Assembly (NCBI RefSeq): GCF_000284115.1
Contig: NC_017080.1
Location: 480,001-512,000, forward strand
DNA from: Phycisphaera mikurensis NBRC 102666
GTDB lineage: Bacteria > Planctomycetota > Phycisphaerae > Phycisphaerales > Phycisphaeraceae
Direction: 5' to 3'
DNA: 32,000 nt
Shown here: positions 10,889 to 25,675 of the stretch, piece by piece
How the letters are laid out: each line of letters starts with the position of its first letter
Numbering within the stretch: the first letter of the stretch is position 1
Notes under the pieces: generated by a model
What the model saw: the letters and a program-made list of their open reading frames with translations, nothing else
Told to the model about the DNA's origin: nothing
The model's database searches: none
Made by a program: the position numbers and the translations under genes

Positions 10889-12943
10889 TTGCCGAGCCCC
10901 CTGAACCTCACCCTCGCCGCGGGCGCGCTCTCCTACGAGCAGGTCACGGTTTTCCTGCTCGCCTTCGCGGTGCTGCTGGGCACGGCCCGGCTGTTCGGCG
11001 AGGTGTGCCGCAAGCTCGGCCAGCCGGTCGTGCTCGGCGAGATCCTCGCGGGCGTCGTGCTCGGGGCGACGGTGCTGGGCAGCCCCTCGCTGGCCGGGCC
11101 CGACGGCGCCAACGTGCGGCTCTACGACTGGCTCTTCCCCGTCCACGTGCTCGACGAGGACCGCGAGCCGGTGACGGTGGTGCGGGTCGCCAAAGCCCCC
11201 GACGGCCGGCCGCAGGTGCGCGAGGCGGGAGGCGACACCGCGGCGCCGGTTCCGGAGGTGGCCGCCGATGCGCCGCGGGAGGCGCCGGCGCCGACGCGGG
11301 AGGCGGAGCGGGACGCGGACCCGGTGGCCCCCGGGTCGCTCGCGGTCGTCGACGATCCCTCCGAGCACGAGTTGGACTCCGCGCCCCTGCCGGCCGACCA
11401 CCAGAAGAGCTACGACGGGGGCTACCTCGCGATGTCGATGTTCCTGCAGCTCTCGGCGGTGTTCCTGCTGCTGGTCGCGGGGCTGGAGGTCGACCTCTCG
11501 ATCGTCTGGCGGCAGGGCCGGGCGGCCCTGCTCATCAGCGTCATGAGCATGGTCGTGCCCTTCGCGCTCGGCTTCGCGCTGGCCTACGCGGTGCCGGGGA
11601 TGCTCGGCTTCGACTTCGAGTCCGGCCAGCTGATCCCGTTCGCGCTGTTCCTGGGCGTGGCGATGTCGATCACGGCGCTGCCGGTCATCGCGAAGATCCT
11701 GATGGACCTCAACTTGTTCCGCTCCGACGTGGGCATGCTGATCATGGCCTCGGCGATGGTCAACGACCTGCTCGGCTGGATCGGCTTCGCGATCGTGCTC
11801 GCGATGGTCGCCGTGCCCATCGGCGGCGGCGAGGCGGCCGGGGCGCTCGCGGCGGCGCTGCCGCTGGCCAAGACGATCGGGCTCACGCTGCTCTTCGTCG
11901 GCGGGATGCTGACCGTCGGGCGCTGGGCGGTCCACAGAGTGCTCCCCTTCGTGCAGGCCCACAGCGCCTGGCCGGGCGGCGTGCTGAGCTTCGTGCTCTG
12001 CCTGGCGCTGGTCTGCTCGGCGATCACCGAGGCGATCGGCATCCACTCGATCTTCGGGGCCTTCATCGCCGGCGTCGCGATCGGCGACAGCGCCCACCTG
12101 CGGCGGCAGACGCGGGAGCACATCGAGCAGTTCATCAGCAACATCTTCGCGCCGCTGTTCTTCGCGAGCATCGGCCTGCGGGTGAACTTCTTCGAGGGCT
12201 TCGACCTCACCGCCGTCACGCTGGTGCTGGTGATCGCGATCGCCGGCAAGCTGATCGGCTGCTGGATCGGGGCCATCTGGGCGGGGCTCTCCCGCCGCGA
12301 GTCCGCGGCCATCGGCATGGGCATGAGCGCCAGGGGGGCGATGGAGATCATCCTGGGCCAGCTCGCGCTCAACCAGGGGCTGATCACCGAGAAGCTCTTC
12401 GTCGCCATCGTCGTGATGGCGATCGTCACCTCGCTCATCGCCGGCCCGGGGATGAAGGCCATCCTGCGGATCAAGGCCCGCCGCAAGCTGACGGATCTCA
12501 TCTCCGAGAAGCTGTACGTGGACGAGCTCCGGACGGACAACGCCCGCGGCATCATTGCCGAGCTCGCCGAGCGCGCCACCGCGACGGCGGGGCTGCCGGC
12601 GGCGGAGATCGCCGAGTCGGCGTGGCGGCGCGAGCGGCTCTTCTCGACCGGGCTGCCCGGGGGCCTGGCCATCCCGCACGCCCGCCTGGCCGGCCTCTCC
12701 CGGCCCATGGTCGCCGTGGGCCGCAGCCGCGACGGCGTCGACTTCGACGCCACCGACGGCTCGAGAGCCCGGCTGATCTGCCTGCTGCTCTCGCCGGCCG
12801 AAGACCCCACGGCGCAGGTGGAGTTGCTGCGGGCGGTCGGGGAGACCTTCGCCAACAAGGAGACGCGGGCCGCGGCGCTCGACGCGACGGGCTACACCCA
12901 GTTCCGGGCGGCGCTGATCGTCGGCGAGGCCGCCGAGCACTGA
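10889..12943 (+). CDS. CPA2-family cation:proton antiporter fused to a C-terminal PTS EIIA (type 2, Ntr/Fru) domain
   Basis: It has multiple TM helices with Kef/NapA-type motifs ('GQPVVLGEILAGVVLG', 'LLLVAGLEVD', 'IFGAFIAGVAIG'). The C-terminal ~150 aa carry an EIIA-2 signature ('GLAIPHARL...VAVGRS..GVDFDATDGSRARLICLLLSP'). The TTG start at 10889 is uncertain. Confidence 0.88.
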   Translation: MPSPLNLTLAAGALSYEQVTVFLLAFAVLLGTARLFGEVCRKLGQPVVLGEILAGVVLGATVLGSPSLAGPDGANVRLYDWLFPVHVLDEDREPVTVVRVAKAPDGRPQVREAGGDTAAPVPEVAADAPREAPAPTREAERDADPVAPGSLAVVDDPSEHELDSAPLPADHQKSYDGGYLAMSMFLQLSAVFLLLVAGLEVDLSIVWRQGRAALLISVMSMVVPFALGFALAYAVPGMLGFDFESGQLIPFALFLGVAMSITALPVIAKILMDLNLFRSDVGMLIMASAMVNDLLGWIGFAIVLAMVAVPIGGGEAAGALAAALPLAKTIGLTLLFVGGMLTVGRWAVHRVLPFVQAHSAWPGGVLSFVLCLALVCSAITEAIGIHSIFGAFIAGVAIGDSAHLRRQTREHIEQFISNIFAPLFFASIGLRVNFFEGFDLTAVTLVLVIAIAGKLIGCWIGAIWAGLSRRESAAIGMGMSARGAMEIILGQLALNQGLITEKLFVAIVVMAIVTSLIAGPGMKAILRIKARRKLTDLISEKLYVDELRTDNARGIIAELAERATATAGLPAAEIAESAWRRERLFSTGLPGGLAIPHARLAGLSRPMVAVGRSRDGVDFDATDGSRARLICLLLSPAEDPTAQVELLRAVGETFANKETRAAALDATGYTQFRAALIVGEAAEH

Positions 12944-13008: not shown

Positions 13009-13824
13009 TCAAGCGGCCGCGCGGGGCCCGACCGCCTCGGCGAGGAGCCGGCCGAGCGCGGCTTCCAGCGCCTCCGCGTCCGCATCGGCCTCGCCGGCCG
13101 CGGGCTCGGCGCCGCCGGCGAGCCGGGCGCGGGTGCGCCCGACGGCGGCGCGGCAAGCCTCCACCGCCTCGGGGTCCGAGCCGGGCAGGCGCGCGAGCTG
13201 GGCGAGCGCCCCGCCGAGCGCCTCCGCCAGCCGCTCGCGGATCTCGGCGGCCTCCGCCCGCGCGGCGCTGAGCTCCGCCAGCTCCCGCTTCCGCCGCGTC
13301 ACGTCGACGTGCGTGCCGATGAAGCGGACGGCGCGGCCCTCGTGGTCCCGCGTGACGGCGCCGCGGGAGAAGATCTCCACCCAGGTGCCCGTCCGGTGCC
13401 GCATGCGGAACCCGATGACGTACTCGTCCTCACGCGTGGCGGCGATGTGCTCTTCGAACACGTTGAGGACCCGATCCCGGTCGTCGGGGTGCATGAGGTC
13501 CAGCGCGGTGGACACGGCCGATCCGAGTTCCGCGCGGTTGAGGCCGAGCATCCGCGCCCAGCCCTCGGAGTAGTGGACCCGGTCGTTCTGCAGGTCGACG
13601 TCCCAGATGCCATCGCCCGCCGCGTCCATCGCGGCCTCCAGCCGCTCGCAGCGGAAGGCGAGCTCGTTCCTCTCGGCCCGGACCTTCAGCAGCTGGACCC
13701 GCGTCGCGGCGTGGGCGCGGGCGCTGGACGGGCCTTCGGGACCGGAGGCGGGCGTGCCGGGCGGGGAAGCTTCGGGCATGCGGAGGCATCGGCCAGGCGA
13801 GGGATCACCCTTCAGCAGACCCAC
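13009..13824 (-). CDS. stand-alone PAS-domain protein flanked by coiled-coil segments
   Basis: It has a PAS_3-type pattern ('GIWDVDLQNDRVHYSEGWARMLG...LMHPDDRDRV...FRMRHRTGTWVEIFSRGAVTRDHEGRAVRFIGTHVDVT'). GTG 13824 has a GGAG 9 nt upstream. ATG 13779 is an alternative start. Confidence 0.8.
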   Translation of the reverse strand: MGLLKGDPSPGRCLRMPEASPPGTPASGPEGPSSARAHAATRVQLLKVRAERNELAFRCERLEAAMDAAGDGIWDVDLQNDRVHYSEGWARMLGLNRAELGSAVSTALDLMHPDDRDRVLNVFEEHIAATREDEYVIGFRMRHRTGTWVEIFSRGAVTRDHEGRAVRFIGTHVDVTRRKRELAELSAARAEAAEIRERLAEALGGALAQLARLPGSDPEAVEACRAAVGRTRARLAGGAEPAAGEADADAEALEAALGRLLAEAVGPRAAA

Positions 13825-15332: not shown

Positions 15333-15644
15333 GAGGTGGGGAGGCGGGGAAGCGGGGAAGCGGGGAAGCGGGGAAGCGGGAAAGCGGAGAAGCGGGGAAG
15401 CGGGGAAGCGGGGAAGCGAAGAAGCGAAGAAGCGGAGAAGCGAAGAAGCGAAGAAGCGAGGAAGCGAAGAAGCGAAGAAGCGGAGAAGCGGAGAAGCGGA
15501 GAAGCGGAGAAGCGGAGAAGCGAAGAAGCGAGGAAGCGAGGAAGCGAGGAAGCGGGGAAGCGGGGAAGCGGGGAAGCGGGGAAGCGGAGAAGTGAAGAAG
15601 CGAAGAGACGAAGAGGCGGAGAAGTGGGGAGGCGGGGAGGTCGG
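15333..15644. repeat. tandem array of an 8-bp unit GAAGCGRR, 39 units in unbroken register (32 well-conserved units at 15349-15604)
   Basis: I counted it unit by unit in the sequence and found no indels. The last two bases vary in blocks (GG, AA, GA, AG). It is intergenic, between the divergent photolyase and LOG genes. Confidence 0.95.
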
Positions 15645-15775
15645 CGGTGTCTTGGCGACGGCGACCGGGTTTCGCTGCTGACTCACTAGCTTCCTCTCTC
15701 ACCCCGTCGGGTCTGACCGGCTGCGGCTCGCTTCGCGGACGATGCAGCCGCGATCCGCGACGCCCGCCGCTGCGT

Positions 15776-15807
15776 CGCTTCTCCGCTTCTCCGCTTCTCC
15801 GCTTCGT
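15776..15807. repeat. inverted mini-array (CGCTTCTC x3 plus CGCTTCGT), the reverse complement of the GAAGCGGA block of the main array
   Basis: The reverse complement of 15776-15805 matches a 30-nt run inside 15477-15518 exactly. It lies 40 nt upstream of the LOG gene ATG. Confidence 0.85.
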
Positions 15808-15847
15808 GCATTCTGTGCAGGACTCGGATCCACCAAGAGGTCCCGCC

Positions 15848-16585
15848 ATGCCCGACCCCATCGACCCGCAGCTCCGCCATTCCGCCCTCGCCGAGGAGTC
15901 GTGGCGGATGTTCCGCATCCTCTCCGAGTTCGTCGACGGCATCGAGGTGATGTCCGCGGTCGGGCCCGCCGTCTCGATCTTCGGTTCCGCCCGCACGCCC
16001 GAGGACGACCCGGTCTTCGCGCAGGCGGTCGCGTGCGCCCGGAAGGTGGTCGAACGCGACTTCGCCGTGATCACCGGCGGCGGGCCGGGGATCATGACCG
16101 CCGGGAACAAGGGCGCCCACGAGGCGGGCGGGCAGAGCGTGGGGCTGAACATCAAGCTGCCGCACGAGCAAAGCGGCAATCCATACCAGAACGTCAGCCT
16201 CGACTTCCGCTACTTCTTCGTCCGGAAGGTGATGTTCGTGAAGTACGCCTGCGGCTTCATCATCTTCCCCGGCGGCTTCGGCACGCTCGACGAGCTCTTC
16301 GAGAGCCTCACGCTGATCCAGACGATGAAGATCCGCCCCTTCCCGGTGGTCTGCGTCGGCCACGACTTCTGGGACGGCCTGCTCGACTGGATCCGCGAGA
16401 CGCTCGACGAGAAGTACCGGACGATCTCGCACGCGGACCTGGACCTCATCCACGTGACCGACGACCTCGACGAGGCGGTGGCGCAGATCCAGGGCTGCTT
16501 CGACCCCGGGGAGTACGCGAAGCGGGTGGCGGAGCCGATGCCGGCCCAGATGATCGACCTCGCCCGGGCGCAGGCGCCCCGCTGA
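15848..16585 (+). CDS. LOG-family (TIGR00730) nucleotide 5'-monophosphate nucleosidase / cytokinin riboside 5'-monophosphate phosphoribohydrolase-like protein
   Basis: 'VSIFGSAR', 'ITGGGPGIMTAGNKGA', 'GLNIKLPHEQ', 'PGGFGTLDELFE' are the family signatures (GGGxGxM and PGGxGTxxE). Confidence 0.9.
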   Translation: MPDPIDPQLRHSALAEESWRMFRILSEFVDGIEVMSAVGPAVSIFGSARTPEDDPVFAQAVACARKVVERDFAVITGGGPGIMTAGNKGAHEAGGQSVGLNIKLPHEQSGNPYQNVSLDFRYFFVRKVMFVKYACGFIIFPGGFGTLDELFESLTLIQTMKIRPFPVVCVGHDFWDGLLDWIRETLDEKYRTISHADLDLIHVTDDLDEAVAQIQGCFDPGEYAKRVAEPMPAQMIDLARAQAPR

Positions 16586-16664: not shown

Positions 16665-17648
16665 TCACTCCAGCGCCGCGGCGTCGATCCCGTGGGGCCG
16701 CGTGGGCCCCGCGAGGCCTGCGGGCCGCCGCGGTCGCTGCGCCGCGGACCGCGAGCCTTCGGCGCTCGCGGAGCCGGCGGTCCGCGGCGGGGCGGCGACG
16801 CGGAGGCGGAGCCATTCGTGGGCGGGGGTGAGCACGCAGCAGGCGAGCAGCGTGAAGAGCGCGGCGGCGTGGATCGGCCCGGCCGAGGGCACGCGCTCCG
16901 CGGCGAGGGGCCAGAGCCACGCCACCGCGGCGAGCACGGGCAGCCACAGCGGCAGGGCGACCAGGTGGACGCGGGCCAGGCGGCGAAGCGGGCCGCGGAG
17001 CCCAGGGAAGAGCCGGCGGCCGAGGTCGGCGCACTCCGGGCCGGCGTGCAGCAGGAGGAACAGCAAGCCCACGGAAGCGAGCGGCGGGAGCAGCGCCGGG
17101 ACGAGGAACAGCAGGGCCAGCCGCGCCGCGGCTCGGGCGCGGCCCTTTCGCTCCCGCCAGAGGTCCGCGGCGAGCATGCCCGCCGAGGCGACGCACGCCG
17201 CGGTCGCGAGCGGGACGACCGCGCGCGGGAACGGCGCGTCGCCGCCGGCGAGCCGGACGAGCTCGTCGAACAGCGACAGCGTCGCGCCGGGGCGGAAGGC
17301 GAAGGGCAGCAGCACCAGCAAGGCGGCCTCGGCGAAGCAGCGCCGCGGCGGTTCATCCGCGACTCGGCTTGCGGCGGTGCGGCCGAAGTGCCAGACGGTC
17401 AGAGGGAGGAAGGCCAAGAGCGCCACCGCCGGCAGCAGCAAGAGCAGGGCGAGGGCGGCGCCGTCGATCGCGAGGTAGCCGGCGGCCGTGCTTCTTGGCC
17501 AGCCGGGCCCCCGCCGCGGCCGTTCGTTCAGCAGCACGGCCGCGTCGGCGGCGCCGTGCGGCATGCCCAGCGCCAGCAGGCTGAGGGCAAAGGGCAACGC
17601 GGCGATCTCCGCCGCGAAGCCCGGGCACGTCGGGGCCCAGGGGGCCAT
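16665..17648 (-). CDS. blh: Brp/Blh-family beta-carotene 15,15'-dioxygenase (retinal synthesis)
   Basis: It is a polytopic membrane protein with the Blh histidine motifs 'LGMPHGAADA' (H31) and 'VWHFG' (H87), plus later 'LLLHAG' and 'LTPAHEW'. The start is 4 nt after the rhodopsin stop. Confidence 0.8.
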   Translation of the reverse strand: MAPWAPTCPGFAAEIAALPFALSLLALGMPHGAADAAVLLNERPRRGPGWPRSTAAGYLAIDGAALALLLLLPAVALLAFLPLTVWHFGRTAASRVADEPPRRCFAEAALLVLLPFAFRPGATLSLFDELVRLAGGDAPFPRAVVPLATAACVASAGMLAADLWRERKGRARAAARLALLFLVPALLPPLASVGLLFLLLHAGPECADLGRRLFPGLRGPLRRLARVHLVALPLWLPVLAAVAWLWPLAAERVPSAGPIHAAALFTLLACCVLTPAHEWLRLRVAAPPRTAGSASAEGSRSAAQRPRRPAGLAGPTRPHGIDAAALE

Positions 17649-17652
17649 GGGC

Positions 17653-18588
17653 TCAGGCCTCCGCGTGGGCGGGCTCGCCCGAGGCGGTCAGCTTGCTCTG
17701 GTTCTCGCCGCGGGCGGCGAACTCGTCGGTCAGCTGGAAGCCGATCGTCGCGAGCAGCACGCCGTAGATCGCCTTGGAGGTGATGTCCGCGAGGGTGAAC
17801 AGGAACTGGCGGGTCACCACGCTCACCGGGCTCCACCAGAATAGCGGCTGCACCAGCGTGAAGGCGTAGACGGTCCAGGAGATCAGGAAGATCGTGCGGA
17901 TCGTCCGCAGCAGCTTGGCGCTGCGCTCGGGCAGCACCTCCAGACCGGCGTTGATCACCTGCCACACGACGACGAGGATCCACACGTAGGCGACCCACCC
18001 GATGAGGTAGTTCACCCAGAACCAGAAGGTGCCGCGGCCGGCGACGTGCTGGCCCTGCTCCCAGAAGCTGCCCAGCCACGAGCAGAAGACCATCACCAGG
18101 CCCGCGACCACGAACTGGGCGCCCCACTTGGTGATGTTGCTCCGCGCGGCGCCCGCCAGCGGCAGCAGCACCAGCATCGACAGCAGCAGGTTCGGCACGT
18201 CGATCATCCAGTTCATGTACCGGAAGCCGTTGGAGAACAGCCGGCCCTCGATGCGCTCGTACATGCCGGTCGCTTCGTTGAAGACGAAGGCGTTCTCCCA
18301 GACCGAGGACTGGTGGTAGAGGATCAGACCCGCCGAGATCGTGACGACGCAGGAGATCACCGACGAGAGCTGGAAGCGGTCGTGGCTTTTGCGGAGCGTC
18401 AGGATGAAGAAGACGAGCGCGGCCGCGAAGACGCCGTAGCCCAGCGTGAACACGTGCAGCACCGACTGGTACTGCATGGGCGTGTAGGCGAACCAGTTCG
18501 CCATGTGGTGCAGGTTCACGGCGGACTCGCCGTCGGCCAGGGGCGCAGCCGACAGGGCTTGCGCGAGCAGCGGGGAAGATGAGAGCAT
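17653..18588 (-). CDS. microbial (type I) rhodopsin of the KR2/Na+-pump clade with an N-D-S helix-C motif
   Basis: It is a 7-TM protein. 'NGFRYMNWMIDVPNLLLS' matches KR2 'NGYRYLNWLIDVPMLLFQ'. The Schiff-base lysine lies in 'LADITSKAIYGVLL' (KR2 'IADVSSKVIYGVLL'). 'FLISWTVY', 'VINAG' and 'FTLGYGV..FFILT' are all KR2-like. It has ATG and stop codons and a blh gene immediately downstream. Confidence 0.93.
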   Translation of the reverse strand: MLSSSPLLAQALSAAPLADGESAVNLHHMANWFAYTPMQYQSVLHVFTLGYGVFAAALVFFILTLRKSHDRFQLSSVISCVVTISAGLILYHQSSVWENAFVFNEATGMYERIEGRLFSNGFRYMNWMIDVPNLLLSMLVLLPLAGAARSNITKWGAQFVVAGLVMVFCSWLGSFWEQGQHVAGRGTFWFWVNYLIGWVAYVWILVVVWQVINAGLEVLPERSAKLLRTIRTIFLISWTVYAFTLVQPLFWWSPVSVVTRQFLFTLADITSKAIYGVLLATIGFQLTDEFAARGENQSKLTASGEPAHAEA

Positions 18589-18675
18589 GAGCGTTTTCCG
18601 GAGCGTCTTCGTGCTTCACCGCGGGCCGCCTCTCTCCGCGAGGCGCCGGGCGATGGTCGACGCTAGCCGGCAGCA

Positions 18676-20130
18676 TCAGCCGGATTGCGCGACCGCCCGA
18701 TCTTTCGCTCCGCCCCGCAGCGGCGCCGCCAGCAACGCGAGCACGCCGACCACCTCCAGCCGGCCCACCCACATGAGCGCGACGAGCACGACCCGGCAGG
18801 CCGCCGGCGCCTCGGCGTCGGTGAAGCCCGAGCTCAGGCCGACGGTGCCCAGCGCCGACGCCGCCTCGAAGGCGGCATCGACCCAGGTCACACCCGCGGG
18901 GGAGGCGAAGCCCAGCGCCAGCGTGCCCAACGCGAACGCCGCCGCGTAGAGCCCGGCGAGCCGCCGGGTGGCGGCGACGGGCTCGGCCAGGCGGTGGCCG
19001 GCGTCCGGCTTGCCCGCGGCCGCCCGCACCAGCCGCCGCAGCCGTGCGAGCTTCAGGCCGCCGCCGGTGGAGCCGGCCGAGGCGCCCACCAGCATCGCCA
19101 GCGCGAGCGGGAGCGCCGCGATCGGGAGCAGCCCGCCGCCGCCCTCGCGGACCGTGAAGCCGGCGGTGGCGAGGCCGCTCGCCGCCTCGAAGAAGGCCGG
19201 CCAGGCCGGCACACCTGAGGCCCACACGAGCAGGAACAGCGGCAGCAAGGCCGCCGCGAACCAGCGTGCCTGCGGGTCGATCGCCAGCGCCGCCGGCCGC
19301 CGCCCGAACGTCATCAGCCGCAGGGTCCCGAAGCCGACCGCGCCCGCGAGCATCGTGACGCACGCCACGGCCTGCGCCGCGGTTCCGAAGGCCGCGAGGC
19401 TGTCGGCCGAGGTCGAGAAGCCCCCGGTCGCGGCCGCCGTCTGCGCGTGGTTCGCCGCGTCCCAGGCGCTCATGCCCGCGAGGTAGAGGCCCGCGAAGGA
19501 CAGCAGCGTCAGACCGCCGTAGACGATCCATGTCCGCTCGAGCAGCCGCCGCAGCGAGGGGCCCCGCTTCTCCGCCTCGCCGCTGCCGAGCTCGCCGTCC
19601 GCGGCCTCGTCGTCCCCGTCCTCGGGACCCGCGCGCTCCACGCACGCCAGCGTCAACGCGAAGTAGAGGATGCCCACGCCGCCGATCCACTGCAGCGTGC
19701 TGCGCCACCACTGCAGCGACAGCGGGAGCTCGCGCGGGTCGCCCGCCACGGAGAGGCCGGTGCTGGTCAGCCCGCTGGCCGACTCGAACAGCGCGTTGAG
19801 CGGGCCGAAGGCGCCGCCCGCCGCGAGGAAGGGAGCCGCGCACAGCAGCGAGGCCACCGCCCAAGCCGCCGCGAGCGTCGGCCCCGACGCGTGGTGCGGC
19901 GACCGCTCCCCCCGCCGTCCGTACGCCCAGCCGAGGGCGCCACCCGCCATGGGGACCAGGAGCCCCGCCGCCACCGGCAGCGCCCCCTCGGCCCACGCGA
20001 TCGCGAGCGTCGGCGTCGCCACGAGCGTTAGGGGGCCCAACGCCAGCCCGAGCGTCCGCGTGCACACCCCGGCCCCGGGGGATCCCACGCCTGATGGATT
20101 CAAAGCCGGGTTCCTTTCCGATCGCCGCAC
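18676..20130 (-). CDS. trkH: TrkH/KtrB-family cation (K+/Na+) transporter subunit
   Basis: It has four pore-loop glycine signatures ('GLTSTGLS', 'AATGGFS', 'LATAGFT', 'LGTVGLS') and an intramembrane gating loop 'GSTGGGLKLAR'. The GTG start at 20130 is uncertain, and the N-terminal ~25 aa may not be translated. Confidence 0.85.
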   Translation of the reverse strand: MRRSERNPALNPSGVGSPGAGVCTRTLGLALGPLTLVATPTLAIAWAEGALPVAAGLLVPMAGGALGWAYGRRGERSPHHASGPTLAAAWAVASLLCAAPFLAAGGAFGPLNALFESASGLTSTGLSVAGDPRELPLSLQWWRSTLQWIGGVGILYFALTLACVERAGPEDGDDEAADGELGSGEAEKRGPSLRRLLERTWIVYGGLTLLSFAGLYLAGMSAWDAANHAQTAAATGGFSTSADSLAAFGTAAQAVACVTMLAGAVGFGTLRLMTFGRRPAALAIDPQARWFAAALLPLFLLVWASGVPAWPAFFEAASGLATAGFTVREGGGGLLPIAALPLALAMLVGASAGSTGGGLKLARLRRLVRAAAGKPDAGHRLAEPVAATRRLAGLYAAAFALGTLALGFASPAGVTWVDAAFEAASALGTVGLSSGFTDAEAPAACRVVLVALMWVGRLEVVGVLALLAAPLRGGAKDRAVAQSG

Positions 20131-20437
20131 CCGTCAGCCGGCGAGGCTTCCGAGCGTACCCCCCGCGGTCCCGCGTCGCCGCGCCCCGCCCCGGCTCAGC
20201 CCCGGCCACCGCACAGCTGCGATGGCTCCGCGTGGAGGAGCGGCGGGTGGACCCGAGAGGAACGGCCGCCTCCGGCCGCGTGGGTCTGCGGCCGCGGCGT
20301 CTGCTCCGCGGCGCGGCCCCGGGTGGCGGTGTGCCGGCGGTGCGGGTTCTGCGGGTCGTGCGAGCGTGGAGCCCGGATCTCGCGGCCGGCGGAGGATCGC
20401 GTTGGCCGGCCTCGAAAGCCGCGACAAGCCTTGTCGG

Positions 20438-21760
20438 ATGCGCCGCCGCCTCCTCGCCTCGCCCCTCCGCCTCGCCGCCGCCGCGCTGCTCGGGGCTGCG
20501 GTCGCTCTGCCGGGCGTCGGCGTCGCCGCGGCCGACACGCTCGTGCTGACCGGCGGGCGCACGCTGCAGGGCAGGGTGCTGCAGGAGGACGAGCGGGGCG
20601 TGGTCTTCGAGAGCTTCCGGCACGGAGCGAGGCTGCGGCAGTCGGTGCCCGCTGCGCAGATCGCCTCGATCGCCCGGACCGCCCGCGAAGGCCTCGCGGT
20701 CGCGGTCATCCCGCTGATCGGCGGCGTCGGGCTGGGGACGGGCACGCCCGACGAGCCCGCCGCGACGGCGGCCGGCCTGGAGCGGGCGCTCCGCGTGGCG
20801 CAGGAGGAGCGGGCGGCCCGCATCGTCCTGGTCGTCGACAGCCCCGGCGGCCGCATCGACGAGATGCAGCGGATGCTCGCGCTGCTCCTGGATCCGGAGC
20901 TTCCGCCGGTGACCGCGTACGCGCGGCGGGCCCTGTCCGCCGCCGCGGTGATCGCGCTCGCCTGCGACGAGCTCGTGGTGGCGCCGGAGGCGGTGGTGGG
21001 GGCGGCCGTGCCCCTGCGACTCGGCCCTGAGGGCACGCCGCAGAACATCGAAGCCAAGTACCGCTCCGGCTACGACGCGCTGCTGCGGCAGGTCGCCCGG
21101 CGCGCCGGGCGCGACCCGGACCTGCTCATGGCGATGGCCGACGAGCGGGTCGTGCTCTACGAAGAGCCGGCGCCCCGCGGGCCGCGGCTGACCGGCCGGC
21201 CGGCCGGCGCGGTCTTCAAGGCCGCCGGCGAGATCCTCACGCTCACCGCCGCCGAGGCGGTGCGCCTGGGCGTCGCCCGGGCCGGCGCGGCGAGCGTGGC
21301 GGCGCTGCCCGCGGCGGTCGGCTGGGAAGCGTGGCACAGCGTCGGCCATCGGGCCTGGGAGGAGGCCGGCCGCGTGAACGCCGCCGAGGCCGACGCCCTG
21401 GAGCGGGCGGCCCGCCGCGCCGCCGCGGAGGTGCTGCGGCAGCGCCTCTCGCCCGCGCTGGCGGAGGCCGAGGCCGCGCTCGCGGAGCGGGAGCGAGCCA
21501 TCGCCGGCCTCCACGCCGAGCGCGAACGCGTCGACGCGTGGGCCCGCGCGCAGCTGGCGGCGCACCCGGCGCCGCCGATGAGCCGCCGCCGCTCGGCGGC
21601 CGCCGAACGCAGCGCGTCGTTGCGCGCGGACATCCGCCTGCAGCACGGAGACGCCGCGGCACGCATCGACGCCGCCTTGGTCGAGCTGACCGCGCAGCGG
21701 GACGCGCTGCGGCAGCAAATCGCCGAGGCCCTCGAAGCGCTCGACGGCCTCCGCGGCTGA
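20438..21760 (+). CDS. secreted ClpP-class (NfeD-like / S49-type) serine protease homologue with a C-terminal coiled coil
   Basis: It has a signal peptide ('LRLAAAALLGAAVALPGVGVAAA'). 'VIPLIGGV...IVLVVDSPGGRIDEMQRM...AAAVIALACDELVVAPEAVVGAAVP' follows the NfeD N-terminal/ClpP-fold pattern. The C-terminal ~130 aa are Ala/Glu/Arg-rich heptad-like sequence. Confidence 0.7.
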   Translation: MRRRLLASPLRLAAAALLGAAVALPGVGVAAADTLVLTGGRTLQGRVLQEDERGVVFESFRHGARLRQSVPAAQIASIARTAREGLAVAVIPLIGGVGLGTGTPDEPAATAAGLERALRVAQEERAARIVLVVDSPGGRIDEMQRMLALLLDPELPPVTAYARRALSAAAVIALACDELVVAPEAVVGAAVPLRLGPEGTPQNIEAKYRSGYDALLRQVARRAGRDPDLLMAMADERVVLYEEPAPRGPRLTGRPAGAVFKAAGEILTLTAAEAVRLGVARAGAASVAALPAAVGWEAWHSVGHRAWEEAGRVNAAEADALERAARRAAAEVLRQRLSPALAEAEAALAERERAIAGLHAERERVDAWARAQLAAHPAPPMSRRRSAAAERSASLRADIRLQHGDAAARIDAALVELTAQRDALRQQIAEALEALDGLRG

Positions 21761-21806
21761 GCGGCGGCGTCCCCGGGCGGGCGGGCGGGTCCGGTAGATT
21801 GGGCGG

Positions 21807-22145
21807 ATGCCCTCCGCCCCCGCCCCTCCCACCGCCTCGCCCGCCGCCCGCGAGCCCGCGACGCTGCCGCCCCACGTGCTGGTGCTGCACAACGACGAGC
21901 AGAACACGCTGGGATACGTCGTGGACGTGCTGCGGCGCGTGCTGGGGCTCTCCGCCTCCCGGGCTTGGCGGCTGGCCCGGGTGACGCACCGCCGCGGCCG
22001 CTGCGCGGTCTGGGCGGGCCACCGCGAGCTGGCGGAGCTCAAGGCCGTGCAGGTGCGGGCCGCCGGCCCCGATCCCGGGGTCGTCGCGCTCGGCGATCCG
22101 TGCCGGCCGCTGCGGGTGAGCGTCGAGCGCGCCCCGAGCGGGTGA
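21807..22145 (+). CDS. clpS: ATP-dependent Clp protease adaptor ClpS
   Basis: It is ~110 aa. 'HVLVLHNDEQNTLGYVVDVLRRVLGLSASRAWRLARVTHRRGRCAVWAGHRELAELKAVQV' matches the ClpS core pattern (V.L.NDd.nt..fV...L). Confidence 0.85.
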   Translation: MPSAPAPPTASPAAREPATLPPHVLVLHNDEQNTLGYVVDVLRRVLGLSASRAWRLARVTHRRGRCAVWAGHRELAELKAVQVRAAGPDPGVVALGDPCRPLRVSVERAPSG

Positions 22146-22227
22146 GACACGCGGCCGTCTCCGCGGGGCGATCCCGGATCGCCCCGGCCGTGCCCCCCCG
22201 CACCGCCGGCCTTCCTCTGGAGCCCCC

Positions 22228-24815: not shown

Positions 24816-24920
24816 GGTCGAAGATCCGTTGGGAAGAGACAGGGCGGAGCCGGAGCACGGGGAGGAGCGTCCGACGCTAGCGCAGGGCGGCCCGACGCGC
24901 GGCCGCGTCGGTCGGGGTCG

Positions 24921-25675
24921 GCTTCCACATCGACGGAGTCGATGAGGCACCTGTGGGCGGGTGGCTCATCCACTCCGTGGATGTGGGTCTGAGGGGCCCG
25001 GGTCGGCGGGAAGCGGGAAACCCGCCCGGTCGCGGACGCGGGCTGCTTCGGTTGCAATCGGCTTCTACATCGACGGAGTCGATGAGCCACCTGTGGGCGG
25101 GTGGCTCATCCACTCCGTGGATGTGGGTCTGAGGGGCTCGGGGTCGGCGGGAAGCGGGAACTCCGCCCGGTCGCGGACGCGGGCTGCCTCGGTTGCGATC
25201 GGCTTCTACATCGACGGAGTCGATGAGGCACCTGTGGCAGGTGGCTCATCCACTCCGTGGATGTGGCGGCTCAGGGGCTTGGGCGGGCGGGAAGCGGGAA
25301 ACCCGCCCGGTCGCGGACGCGGGCTGCTTCGGTTGCAATCGGCTTCTACATCGACGGAGTCGATGAGCCACCTGTGGGCGGGTGGCTCATCCACTCCGTG
25401 GATGTGGGTCTGAGGGGCTCGGGGTCGGCGGGAAGCGGGAACCCCGCCCGGTCGCGGACGCGGGCTGCCTCGGTTGCGATCGGCTTCTACATCGACGGAG
25501 TCGATGAGCCACCTGTGGGCAGGTGGCTCATCCATTCCGTGGATGTGGCGGCTCAGGGGCTCGGGCGGGCGAGAAGCGGGAAACCCGCCCGGTCGCGGAC
25601 GCGGGCTGCTTCGGTTGCAATCGGCTTCTACATCGACGGAGTCGATGAGCCACCTGTGGGCAACCAGGTGGCTCA
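24921..25675. repeat. tandem repeat of a ~140/141-bp unit (5 full copies plus a partial sixth), each with a 24-bp-arm hairpin; alternating A/B subtypes give a ~281-bp higher-order unit
   Basis: Unit starts were read at 24921, 25061, 25202, 25342, 25483 and 25623. Units 2 and 4, and units 3 and 5, are near-identical pairs. The array is intergenic, between the gyrA stop and the AKR start. A degenerate flank extends to about 24885. Confidence 0.95.

Follow-up and report, generated by a model that had tools for sequence, protein, structure and literature searches.

On the minus strand of a 32,000-nucleotide (nt) stretch of the Phycisphaera mikurensis NBRC 102666 genome (contig NC_017080.1, positions 480,001 to 512,000; hereafter the window, from whose first letter the host coordinates are counted), three genes follow one another closely, and the middle one is the subject of this study. 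A gene of the TrkH family of K+ transporters/channels (trkH, 18676..20130; Pfam TrkH, E=2e-41) lies directly upstream of a rhodopsin gene (17653..18588), which is followed by blh (16665..17648), the gene of a retinal-making Brp/Blh beta-carotene 15,15'-dioxygenase of 327 amino acids (aa) (Pfam BCD, E=2e-28). We hold with moderate confidence, on grounds of sequence, that the product of the rhodopsin gene binds retinal and belongs to the light-driven outward cation pumps of the Na+-pumping rhodopsin (NaR) clade represented by KR2 and ErNaR, and that it most likely still exports Na+. By analogy with KR2, it probably exports H+ when Na+ is scarce. The Asn-Asp-Gln (NDQ) triad both defines Na+-pumping rhodopsins and serves as a filter for databases, and in this protein its third residue is Ser.

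The rhodopsin coding sequence comprises 311 codons from an ATG start, with the stop codon included in the coordinates, and was delimited from the list of open reading frames (ORFs), the Pfam match, the KR2 match and the G+C content at third codon positions (GC3). It lies on the minus strand, a point on which the initial annotation of this DNA was silent. The product is 100% identical to the "bacteriorhodopsin" of Phycisphaera mikurensis at NCBI (P0001), and the G+C fractions at the three codon positions (0.58/0.43/0.97) give the same signature as in the real genes of the window. Because the window has 74% G+C, long spurious ORFs appear in every frame. Overlapping ORFs on other frames or strands, such as 17528..22150 (minus, 1540 aa), failed the GC3/GC2 test and were rejected as high-GC artefacts.

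Membership of the type-1 rhodopsins is indicated by the Pfam Bac_rhodopsin match (PF01036; E=4e-24, 85.7 bits against a cut-off of 24.6). When all PDB sequences were searched with phmmer, KR2 came first (4xtl; E=2.8e-45, residues 35-287), followed by ErNaR (3e-40) and then by the NTQ chloride pumps (~1e-34). An AlphaFold2 model built on 55 homologues (predicted local distance difference test, pLDDT, 90.4; predicted template modelling score, pTM, 0.86) has seven helices plus a short helix at the N-terminus and a B-C beta-hairpin, and Foldseek placed it on ErNaR, KR2 and IaNaR with target-normalised template modelling (TM) scores of 0.88-0.92 and root-mean-square deviations (rmsd) of 1.4-2.1 A. 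ErNaR, a Subgroup 2 protein from Erythrobacter sp. HL-111 (PDB 8qle, 9tbd), is the top structural match (TM 0.89-0.90). KR2 (PDB 3x3b, 4xtl, 6yc3, 6xyt) shares 35-36% identity with the protein (E=3e-45), and the predicted structure superposes on it with TM ~0.9 and rmsd ~1.6 A; the N-terminal helix and B-C beta-hairpin are common to both. The first eleven residues (18556-18588, minus) show a pattern, 'M(L/I)xxxLLAQA', that is kept in relatives only ~50% identical (alignment A1). They are modelled with pLDDT <50 and lack the length and charge of a classical signal peptide.

The helix-C codons (18178..18213, minus) read aac tgg atg atc gac gtg ccg aac ctg ctg ctg tcg and include those of N126 (18213-18211), D130 (18201-18199), N133 (18192-18190) and S137 (18180-18178), the last being TCG. 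The rhodopsin motif is thus N126/D130/S137 at the positions of KR2 N112/D116/Q123, with N133 at KR2 M119. The initial annotation had already proposed this N-D-S motif, and phmmer, MAFFT and the direct reading of codons agree on it; all of its residue numbers were reproduced by the phmmer and MAFFT alignments, and the KR2 helix-C string it used is that of the PDB sequence. A Gln at the third motif position was looked for under rigorous alignment and none was found. Since the query helix C (NWMIDVPNLLLSMLVLLPL) contains no Gln at all, no alignment shift could restore NDQ.

The rest of the Schiff-base core is KR2-like, as had been claimed. In phmmer and two MAFFT alignments, the equivalences to KR2 are H45=H30, S76=N61, R116=D102, R123=R109, N126=N112, D130=D116, S137=Q123, E177=E160, R260=R243, D268=D251, S271=S254, K272=K255 and A280=G263. 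Common to both proteins are the equivalents of KR2 H30, S64, S70, L75, Q78, R109, N112, W113, D116, L120, E160, R243, D251, S254 and K255. All residues found essential in work on KR2 are kept (S85, R123, N126, D130, D268, S271 and K272), as are H45, S79, Q93, E177 and R260; S85 corresponds to KR2 Ser70, which has a part in the transient binding of Na+. The retinal Schiff-base lysine K272 (codon 17773..17775, minus; aligned to KR2 K255) sits in a conserved ADITSK motif together with D268 and S271, and a Lys is invariant at this position across the 55 homologues.

Set against the definitions of the known classes, the protein has the Asn at the bacteriorhodopsin (BR) D85 position (N126) and the Asp at the BR T89 position, the Schiff-base counterion and proton acceptor (D130), that mark NaR/NDQ proteins, as well as the Arg (R123) and second Asp (D268) of the RNDQDK signature, but it has S137 in place of Gln at the BR D96 position (KR2 Q123). 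Ile89 stands where Subgroup 2 proteins such as ErNaR carry an extra counterion, Glu, at KR2 L74, so by the L/I criterion of the 2024 census the query belongs to Subgroup 1 (PMC11006869). The NTQ chloride pumps (NmClR, FR; PDB 5g28, 5b2n) form a sister branch that shares the first-position Asn and the R/D/K core; they have Thr at the second motif position, however, where the query has D130, and the anion-pump motif is absent from the query.

In the literature, the P. mikurensis rhodopsin appears as 'PmNaR' in a tree legend (PMC7714340), the one place where that name was found, and our search returned no transport or photocycle data for it. A 2013 paper counts it among the rhodopsins with the Asn and Gln of a then-new class (PMC3587595); our alignment contradicts this listing at the third position, where it gives Ser. 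The 2024 NDQ census selected its sequences by the RNDQDK motif (PMC11006869), and NDS and NDT proteins are outside it because that filter excludes them by construction. Literature searches returned nothing on an NDS or NDT rhodopsin motif, no characterised NDS rhodopsin, as the initial annotation had supposed, and no KR2 Q123S or Q123T mutant.

To place the remaining differences from KR2, key columns were tabulated for about 110 full-length members of the NaR/chloride-pump clade, collected by word-indexed and profile searches and by running HMMER exhaustively over 1.84 billion cluster representatives. Their motifs are NDQ (90), NTQ (11), NDT (3), NDS (2) and NTT, NDI, NNA and STQ (1 each), which makes a third-position Ser or Thr rare (5 of ~110). 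The query differs from KR2 at Q123 (S137), M119 (N133), N61 (Ser), G263 (Ala), D102 (Arg), Y154 (Trp), P219 (Ala), Y222 (Leu) and Y247 (Phe). Four of these, at Q123, N61, G263 and D102, had been taken together as a remodelled ion-uptake filter, a claim that did not survive the wider comparison: only Q123->S is unusual, and the other three are ordinary because the residues concerned are common in NDQ proteins and have counterparts in ErNaR. Among the sampled members, position 61 is occupied by N, S, T, A or G, position 263 by G, S, A, T or N, and position 102 by almost any residue, often R. The query's S61/A263 combination is also that of the ErNaR-like subgroup, which has Glu at KR2 L74; ErNaR itself, with A51/S254/E91 at KR2 61/263/102, shares with the query small residues other than Asn and Gly at 61 and 263 and the lack of Asp at 102. 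It is an experimentally proven Na+ pump, whose uptake cavity is 'highly similar' to that of KR2 (PMC11006869). N61S, G263A and D102R were accordingly rejected as marks of an altered filter, and the claim of such a filter is mostly an artefact of comparison with KR2 alone.

These columns also bear on the proposal that the S76/S137/A280 cavity, with or without N133, gives the protein an altered cation selectivity (K+ or larger), leak- or channel-like conduction or inverted transport. Changes at KR2 N61/G263 and S254 do create K+/Cs+ pumps (PMC10608830; PDB titles), removal of the Gln enlarges the gate region, and the S137+N133 combination was found only in the query's clade. The analogy with the engineered pumps, on which the initial annotation had relied, fails nonetheless in its particulars, as these carry bulky residues (P, L, Y, F or W, e.g., N61P/L/Y and G263F/W; PMC10608830) and not Ser or Ala, and S271 (KR2 S254) is retained in the query. 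S61/A263 is moreover the standard pair of ErNaR-like NDQ proteins, ErNaR (A51/S254) pumps Na+ with a KR2-like uptake cavity, K+ export beside the gene of a K+-uptake channel would be futile, and no sequence feature indicates inward transport. We regard this proposal as quite improbable. A changed substrate ion or direction is possible but not indicated, because KR2 Q123A keeps Na+ pumping and Q123V gives competing Na+ and H+ transport.

The loss of the same Gln has been studied in KR2, where S64 and Q123 form a 'weak gate' between the uptake cavity and the Schiff base (PMC7195465). In Q123A both Na+ and H+ are still pumped, the decay being slowed 5.6-fold for L/M and 2.6-fold for O; in Q123V the slowing is 16-18-fold, and Na+ and H+ are pumped competitively (PMC4600240); Q123D/E enhance H+ pumping (PMC10608830). 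Unlike these mutants, the natural protein has, besides the Ser, an Asn at position 119 and numerous other changes in its background. One alternative is therefore a mixed or mainly H+ outward pump, in which protons, once the gate Gln is gone, are effective competitors of Na+ even in sea water, so that the protein mainly builds a proton-motive force. In NaCl, KR2 Q123V pumps H+, its Na+ pumping being unmasked only by carbonyl cyanide m-chlorophenyl hydrazone (CCCP) (PMC4600240), and Gln123 'contributes to Na+/H+ selectivity' (PMC4600240; PMC10608830). When Na+ is absent, H+ is pumped by KR2 itself; a proton path could be formed by the polar N133 or by the His that the surrounding subgroup has at KR2 M119; and a link with TrkH would be equally compatible with an H+ pump. 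Yet Ser is nearer to Ala than to Val, and Q123A keeps wild-type-like Na+ pumping; Ser and Thr cannot donate protons as the Asp or Glu of true H+ pumps does; and the host is marine, at high Na+. The NDS/NDT clade keeps without exception the N-D pair and S85/D268, residues that Na+ binding requires and H+ pumping does not. On balance we consider mixed or predominant H+ pumping unlikely, and Na+ export remains the preferred reading.

Five clusters at 90% identity lack the Gln: the query (P0001) and P0003, which are NDS, and P0002, P0004 and P0005, which are NDT. Identity to the query is 74% for P0002, about 69-73% for P0003 (73% over the aligned 80% of the query) and 52-54% for P0004/P0005. A scan of 185,579 species genomes gave no more NDS or NDT genes (seven NDQ/NTQ loci were returned), and a scan of JGI metagenome contigs with an NDS/NDT profile gave one already-known NDQ locus only, so that the clade was not enlarged beyond these five clusters. 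In a neighbour-joining tree (a distance method, 100 bootstraps, with weak deep nodes at 25-39%), the query is nested inside NDQ proteins, within an enclosing subgroup of 75% bootstrap; together with the first rank of KR2 among PDB matches, this upholds the assignment to the Na+-pump clade. A 100% clade unites P0001 with P0002 and P0003, and a second one unites P0004 with P0005. Both lie among NDQ proteins of one subgroup, and their mutual relationship has only 25% bootstrap. As to whether NDS proteins form a clade, P0001 and P0003 do group together with full bootstrap, but the group also holds the NDT protein P0002. At the third motif position, NDQ relatives use CAG for Gln, P0002 uses ACG for Thr, and both P0001 and P0003 use TCG for Ser; a single substitution separates the Thr codon from the Ser codon, and two are needed to reach either from the Gln codon. 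Other odd motifs in the clade are NTT (P0025) and NNA (P0187, without the counterion Asp), two proteins that the tree places close to the query's subgroup, and NDI (P0041).

The surrounding subgroup has a signature of its own: His at KR2 M119 (Asn instead in the query and P0003), W at Y154, A or G at P219, L at Y222 and F at Y247. From helical periodicity, position 119 would share its face of helix C with 112, 116 and 123 and fall in the stretch that separates the gate from the Schiff base. To this is added an N-terminal motif, 'NLHHMANYF', which in the query reads 'NLHHMANWF' (codons of H27-H28-M29-A30 at 18499..18510, minus) and in which Ala replaces the Glu of the 'MENxF' found in 39/55 homologues (column counts, alignment A2). 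Ala at this position and His/Asn at 119 co-occur perfectly, in the same 14/55 sequences. The replaced Glu is E5 of ErNaR, where it belongs to the triad E5-E149-R234 (PMC11006869); its equivalence to KR2 E11 is drawn through ErNaR, as the KR2 N-terminus is absent from the alignment. Of the extracellular E11-E160-R243 cluster of KR2, the query has E177 and R260, with Ala30, after the nearby His27/His28, at the Glu position. ErNaR, by contrast, keeps both the Gln of the motif and the Glu of the triad. The NDQ rhodopsins of the subgroup with HHMANYF and His119 (P0006-P0011, P0174-P0176, P0186), which come from Planctomycetota and Verrucomicrobiota metagenome bins, are 47-54% identical to the query, share the signature and often have blh downstream; they differ in keeping Gln (CAG) and His119, and trkH is not adjacent at the loci examined. 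The nearest relatives are metagenome bins labelled Verrucomicrobiota/Verrucomicrobiales or 'Akkermansia', and the assignment of the subgroup to Planctomycetota rests on the query's host and on planctomycete-type cytochrome genes on one contig (L016).

P0003 raises the question of whether such proteins are decaying, or are sensory or inactive rhodopsins that do not pump and have lost a hallmark residue by relaxed selection. Besides the loss of the Gln itself, this could be read from its locus (L008, 6975-7921 and 8760-8912), where an insertion sequence (IS) element (helix-turn-helix plus DDE_3 transposase) lies between trkH and the rhodopsin gene and where the 3' end of the latter appears frame-shifted by two indels. 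The contig, however, is a long-read one at 3x coverage, and the three frames together restore helix G, so that the frameshifts are probably sequencing errors; P0003 was not accepted as a pseudogene for this reason. The query ORF, for its part, is intact with a GC3 of 0.97, the core residues are all kept across relatives of 50-74% identity, blh is retained 4 nt away and the synteny is conserved in the 74% identical relative. A decaying or non-pumping query protein is highly improbable.

Blh scores 130 bits against TIGR03753 (cut-off 95.25) and 100 bits against PF15461 (cut-off 28), and its ATG lies 4 nt past the rhodopsin stop (junction tga-gccc-atg); a rhodopsin-BCD pair was also found on L009, L016, L019 and L020. 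The trkH ORF spans 484 aa (470 aa and 'TrkG' at NCBI). Its product scores 142 bits against PF02386 (cut-off 27), matches VpTrkH (3pjz) at E=1e-28 and, compared with that structure, keeps the pore-loop glycine motifs TSTG, TGGFS and TAGFT and the GSTGGGLK loop, all of which places it in TrkH/TrkG; at 190 against 331 bits it stays below the NCBIfam subfamily cut-off and is a divergent member. The spacer of 87 nt (18589..18675, minus) between trkH and the rhodopsin gene, which share one strand, was scanned for promoters and terminators: it holds no terminator-like and no sigma-70-like site, and only chance-level hairpins, inside genes, were seen. We infer from the gene arrangement that the two may be co-transcribed.

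This arrangement, in which trkH sets the neighbourhood apart from that of KR2, recurs elsewhere. The trkH-rhodopsin-blh order is found for the NDT protein P0002 on three contigs (L009-L011; TrkH 66% and Blh 64% identical). At the P0003 locus a trkH orthologue (57%) occupies the same position, apart from the IS element, and flagellar genes stand in place of blh. Next to ErNaR-type relatives, trkH was seen in two further forms. On L024, a fusion of crtY (lycopene cyclase) and BCD is followed by an NDQ rhodopsin with Glu at position 74 (NDQ/E74) and then by trkH with a 4-nt overlap, its product 47% identical to the TrkH of the window; on L006 (Erythrobacter, likewise NDQ/E74), trkH is divergently transcribed ~0-300 nt upstream, with OEP and HlyD genes downstream. 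The coordinates of trkH beside a NaR gene are 18676-20130 (minus) in the window, 3938-5323 on L009, 5393-6817 on L008, 3952-6446 on L024 and 4505-6918 on L006. Adjacency is absent at 13 other NaR-clade loci examined, and it was rejected as a general trait of the clade. Close TrkH homologues also occur without a rhodopsin, on L023 (52%, behind a transporter of the resistance-nodulation-division, RND, type) and on L025 (Rubrivirga, 37%). RND-type efflux genes (OEP, ACR_tran, HlyD) lie directly beside trkH or the rhodopsin gene at several unrelated loci (L008 1-5244, L009 2-3483, L023 1-5004, L006 6875-9917); on L023, a 4-nt overlap joins the ACR_tran gene to the start of trkH.

The occurrence of trkH beside NaR-type pumps in three gene orders and three lineages argues for a functional association; literature searches for a link of rhodopsins with TrkH returned nothing relevant. 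Variants with and without the Gln share this association, which would suit any electrogenic pump. Its conserved position in the NDS/NDT clade suggests a light-driven module of Na+/K+ homeostasis in this marine bacterium. The subgroup signature, the NDT sisters and the trkH-rhodopsin-blh arrangement all go beyond what the initial annotation recorded.

For the preferred reading of an outward Na+ pump, a mechanism can be sketched, all steps of which are taken over from KR2 by homology. Light would isomerise the K272-bound retinal, supplied by Blh, which is encoded 4 nt downstream, and the Schiff-base proton would pass to D130. Na+ from the cytoplasmic cavity would then cross the gate formed by S79 and the much shorter S137 (the S64-Q123 pair of KR2), be bound transiently among S85, N126 and D130 (with D268), and leave past R123, Q93 and the E177-R260 cluster. 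Replacement of Gln by Ser would remove the long amide side chain of the cytoplasmic gate, making it shorter and more open. The expected effect is on uptake kinetics and on how Na+ and H+ compete, not on which ion is carried. The missing polar group may be supplied by Asn133, which by periodicity lies on the same helix face, a turn nearer to the Schiff base. Electrogenic Na+ export would finally remove Na+ and provide the membrane potential that draws K+ in via TrkH.

What speaks for Na+ export is the fold and clade placement, the retention of the essential residues, the blh partner and the conserved synteny, to which are added the S61/A263-type residues of proven or NDQ-type pumps and the presence of trkH beside two genuine NDQ(E74) rhodopsins. 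Several points weigh on the other side. No characterised member of the NDS/NDT clade or of the surrounding subgroup was found in the literature, and the assignment of Na+ transport therefore rests on homology to KR2 at 35-36% identity. Gln123 is otherwise almost invariant (90/96 of the N-D-x proteins sampled), and as it contributes to Na+/H+ selectivity, a protein without it may be affected more than Q123A would imply. If the E11 equivalence holds, the subgroup would lack that very Glu, and the KR2 mutant E11A is both unstable and weaker (PMC10608830). The link with TrkH would fit any electrogenic pump, an H+ pump included, and no TrkA/RCK partner gene lies within the window.

A bolder hypothesis is that the NDS/NDT proteins are a functionally distinct natural branch, in which a shortened gate changes transport and the pump is at the same time a dedicated partner of TrkH. 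The gate, with Ser/Thr and with Asn/His one turn below, could possibly relax cation selectivity, K+ included, or strongly alter Na+/H+ competition and kinetics. The pairing with TrkH would amount to a light-powered Na+-out/K+-in exchange, a retinal-based functional analogue of the Na+/K+ pump, and the recurrence of trkH in three gene orders would mark an undescribed two-component system. The conjunction of both parts seems to us doubtful. Present evidence does not make the rhodopsin a new kind of transporter; it is a rare natural variant within the Na+-pump clade.

Even so, natural NDS and NDT proteins are invisible to RNDQDK-based surveys, the largest included. A natural member without the Gln shows how much of the cytoplasmic gate is dispensable and makes it possible to probe directly what Gln123 contributes to Na+/H+ selectivity and to uptake kinetics, a question of importance for the engineering of NaRs as optogenetic inhibitors; the host strain is in culture. 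The physiological role of NaRs is still debated, and the repeated juxtaposition with trkH suggests that these pumps serve Na+/K+ homeostasis instead of, or besides, energy capture. No description of such a light-driven Na+-out/K+-in module was found in the literature.

Elsewhere in the window, Pfam identified a photolyase gene (13891 to ~15324, minus), a PAS protein gene (13009-13824, minus) and a LOG-family gene (15647-16585, plus). About 6 kb from the trkH-rhodopsin pair lies a gene (10889-12943, plus) whose product joins a CPA2 monovalent cation/H+ antiporter to a PtsN-like phosphotransferase system (PTS) EIIA-2 domain at the C-terminus (Pfam 4.6e-56 and 1.6e-19). In other bacteria, EIIA-Ntr proteins are regulators of K+ transport. 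Rfam gave no matches within the window, its repeat arrays included. An 8-bp tandem repeat, GCGGAGAA, in 36.5 copies with 90% matches (15344-15635) fills the divergent intergenic region between the photolyase and LOG-family genes, and a shorter related array, CGCTTCTC x3.8, is found at 15776-15805. Between the start of an aldo/keto reductase gene and the end of gyrA, a 141-bp unit is repeated 5.3 times with 92% matches (24894-25661), a 281-bp period being also readable, and each unit contains the inverted repeat GATGAGCCACCTGTGGGCGGGTGGCTCATC.

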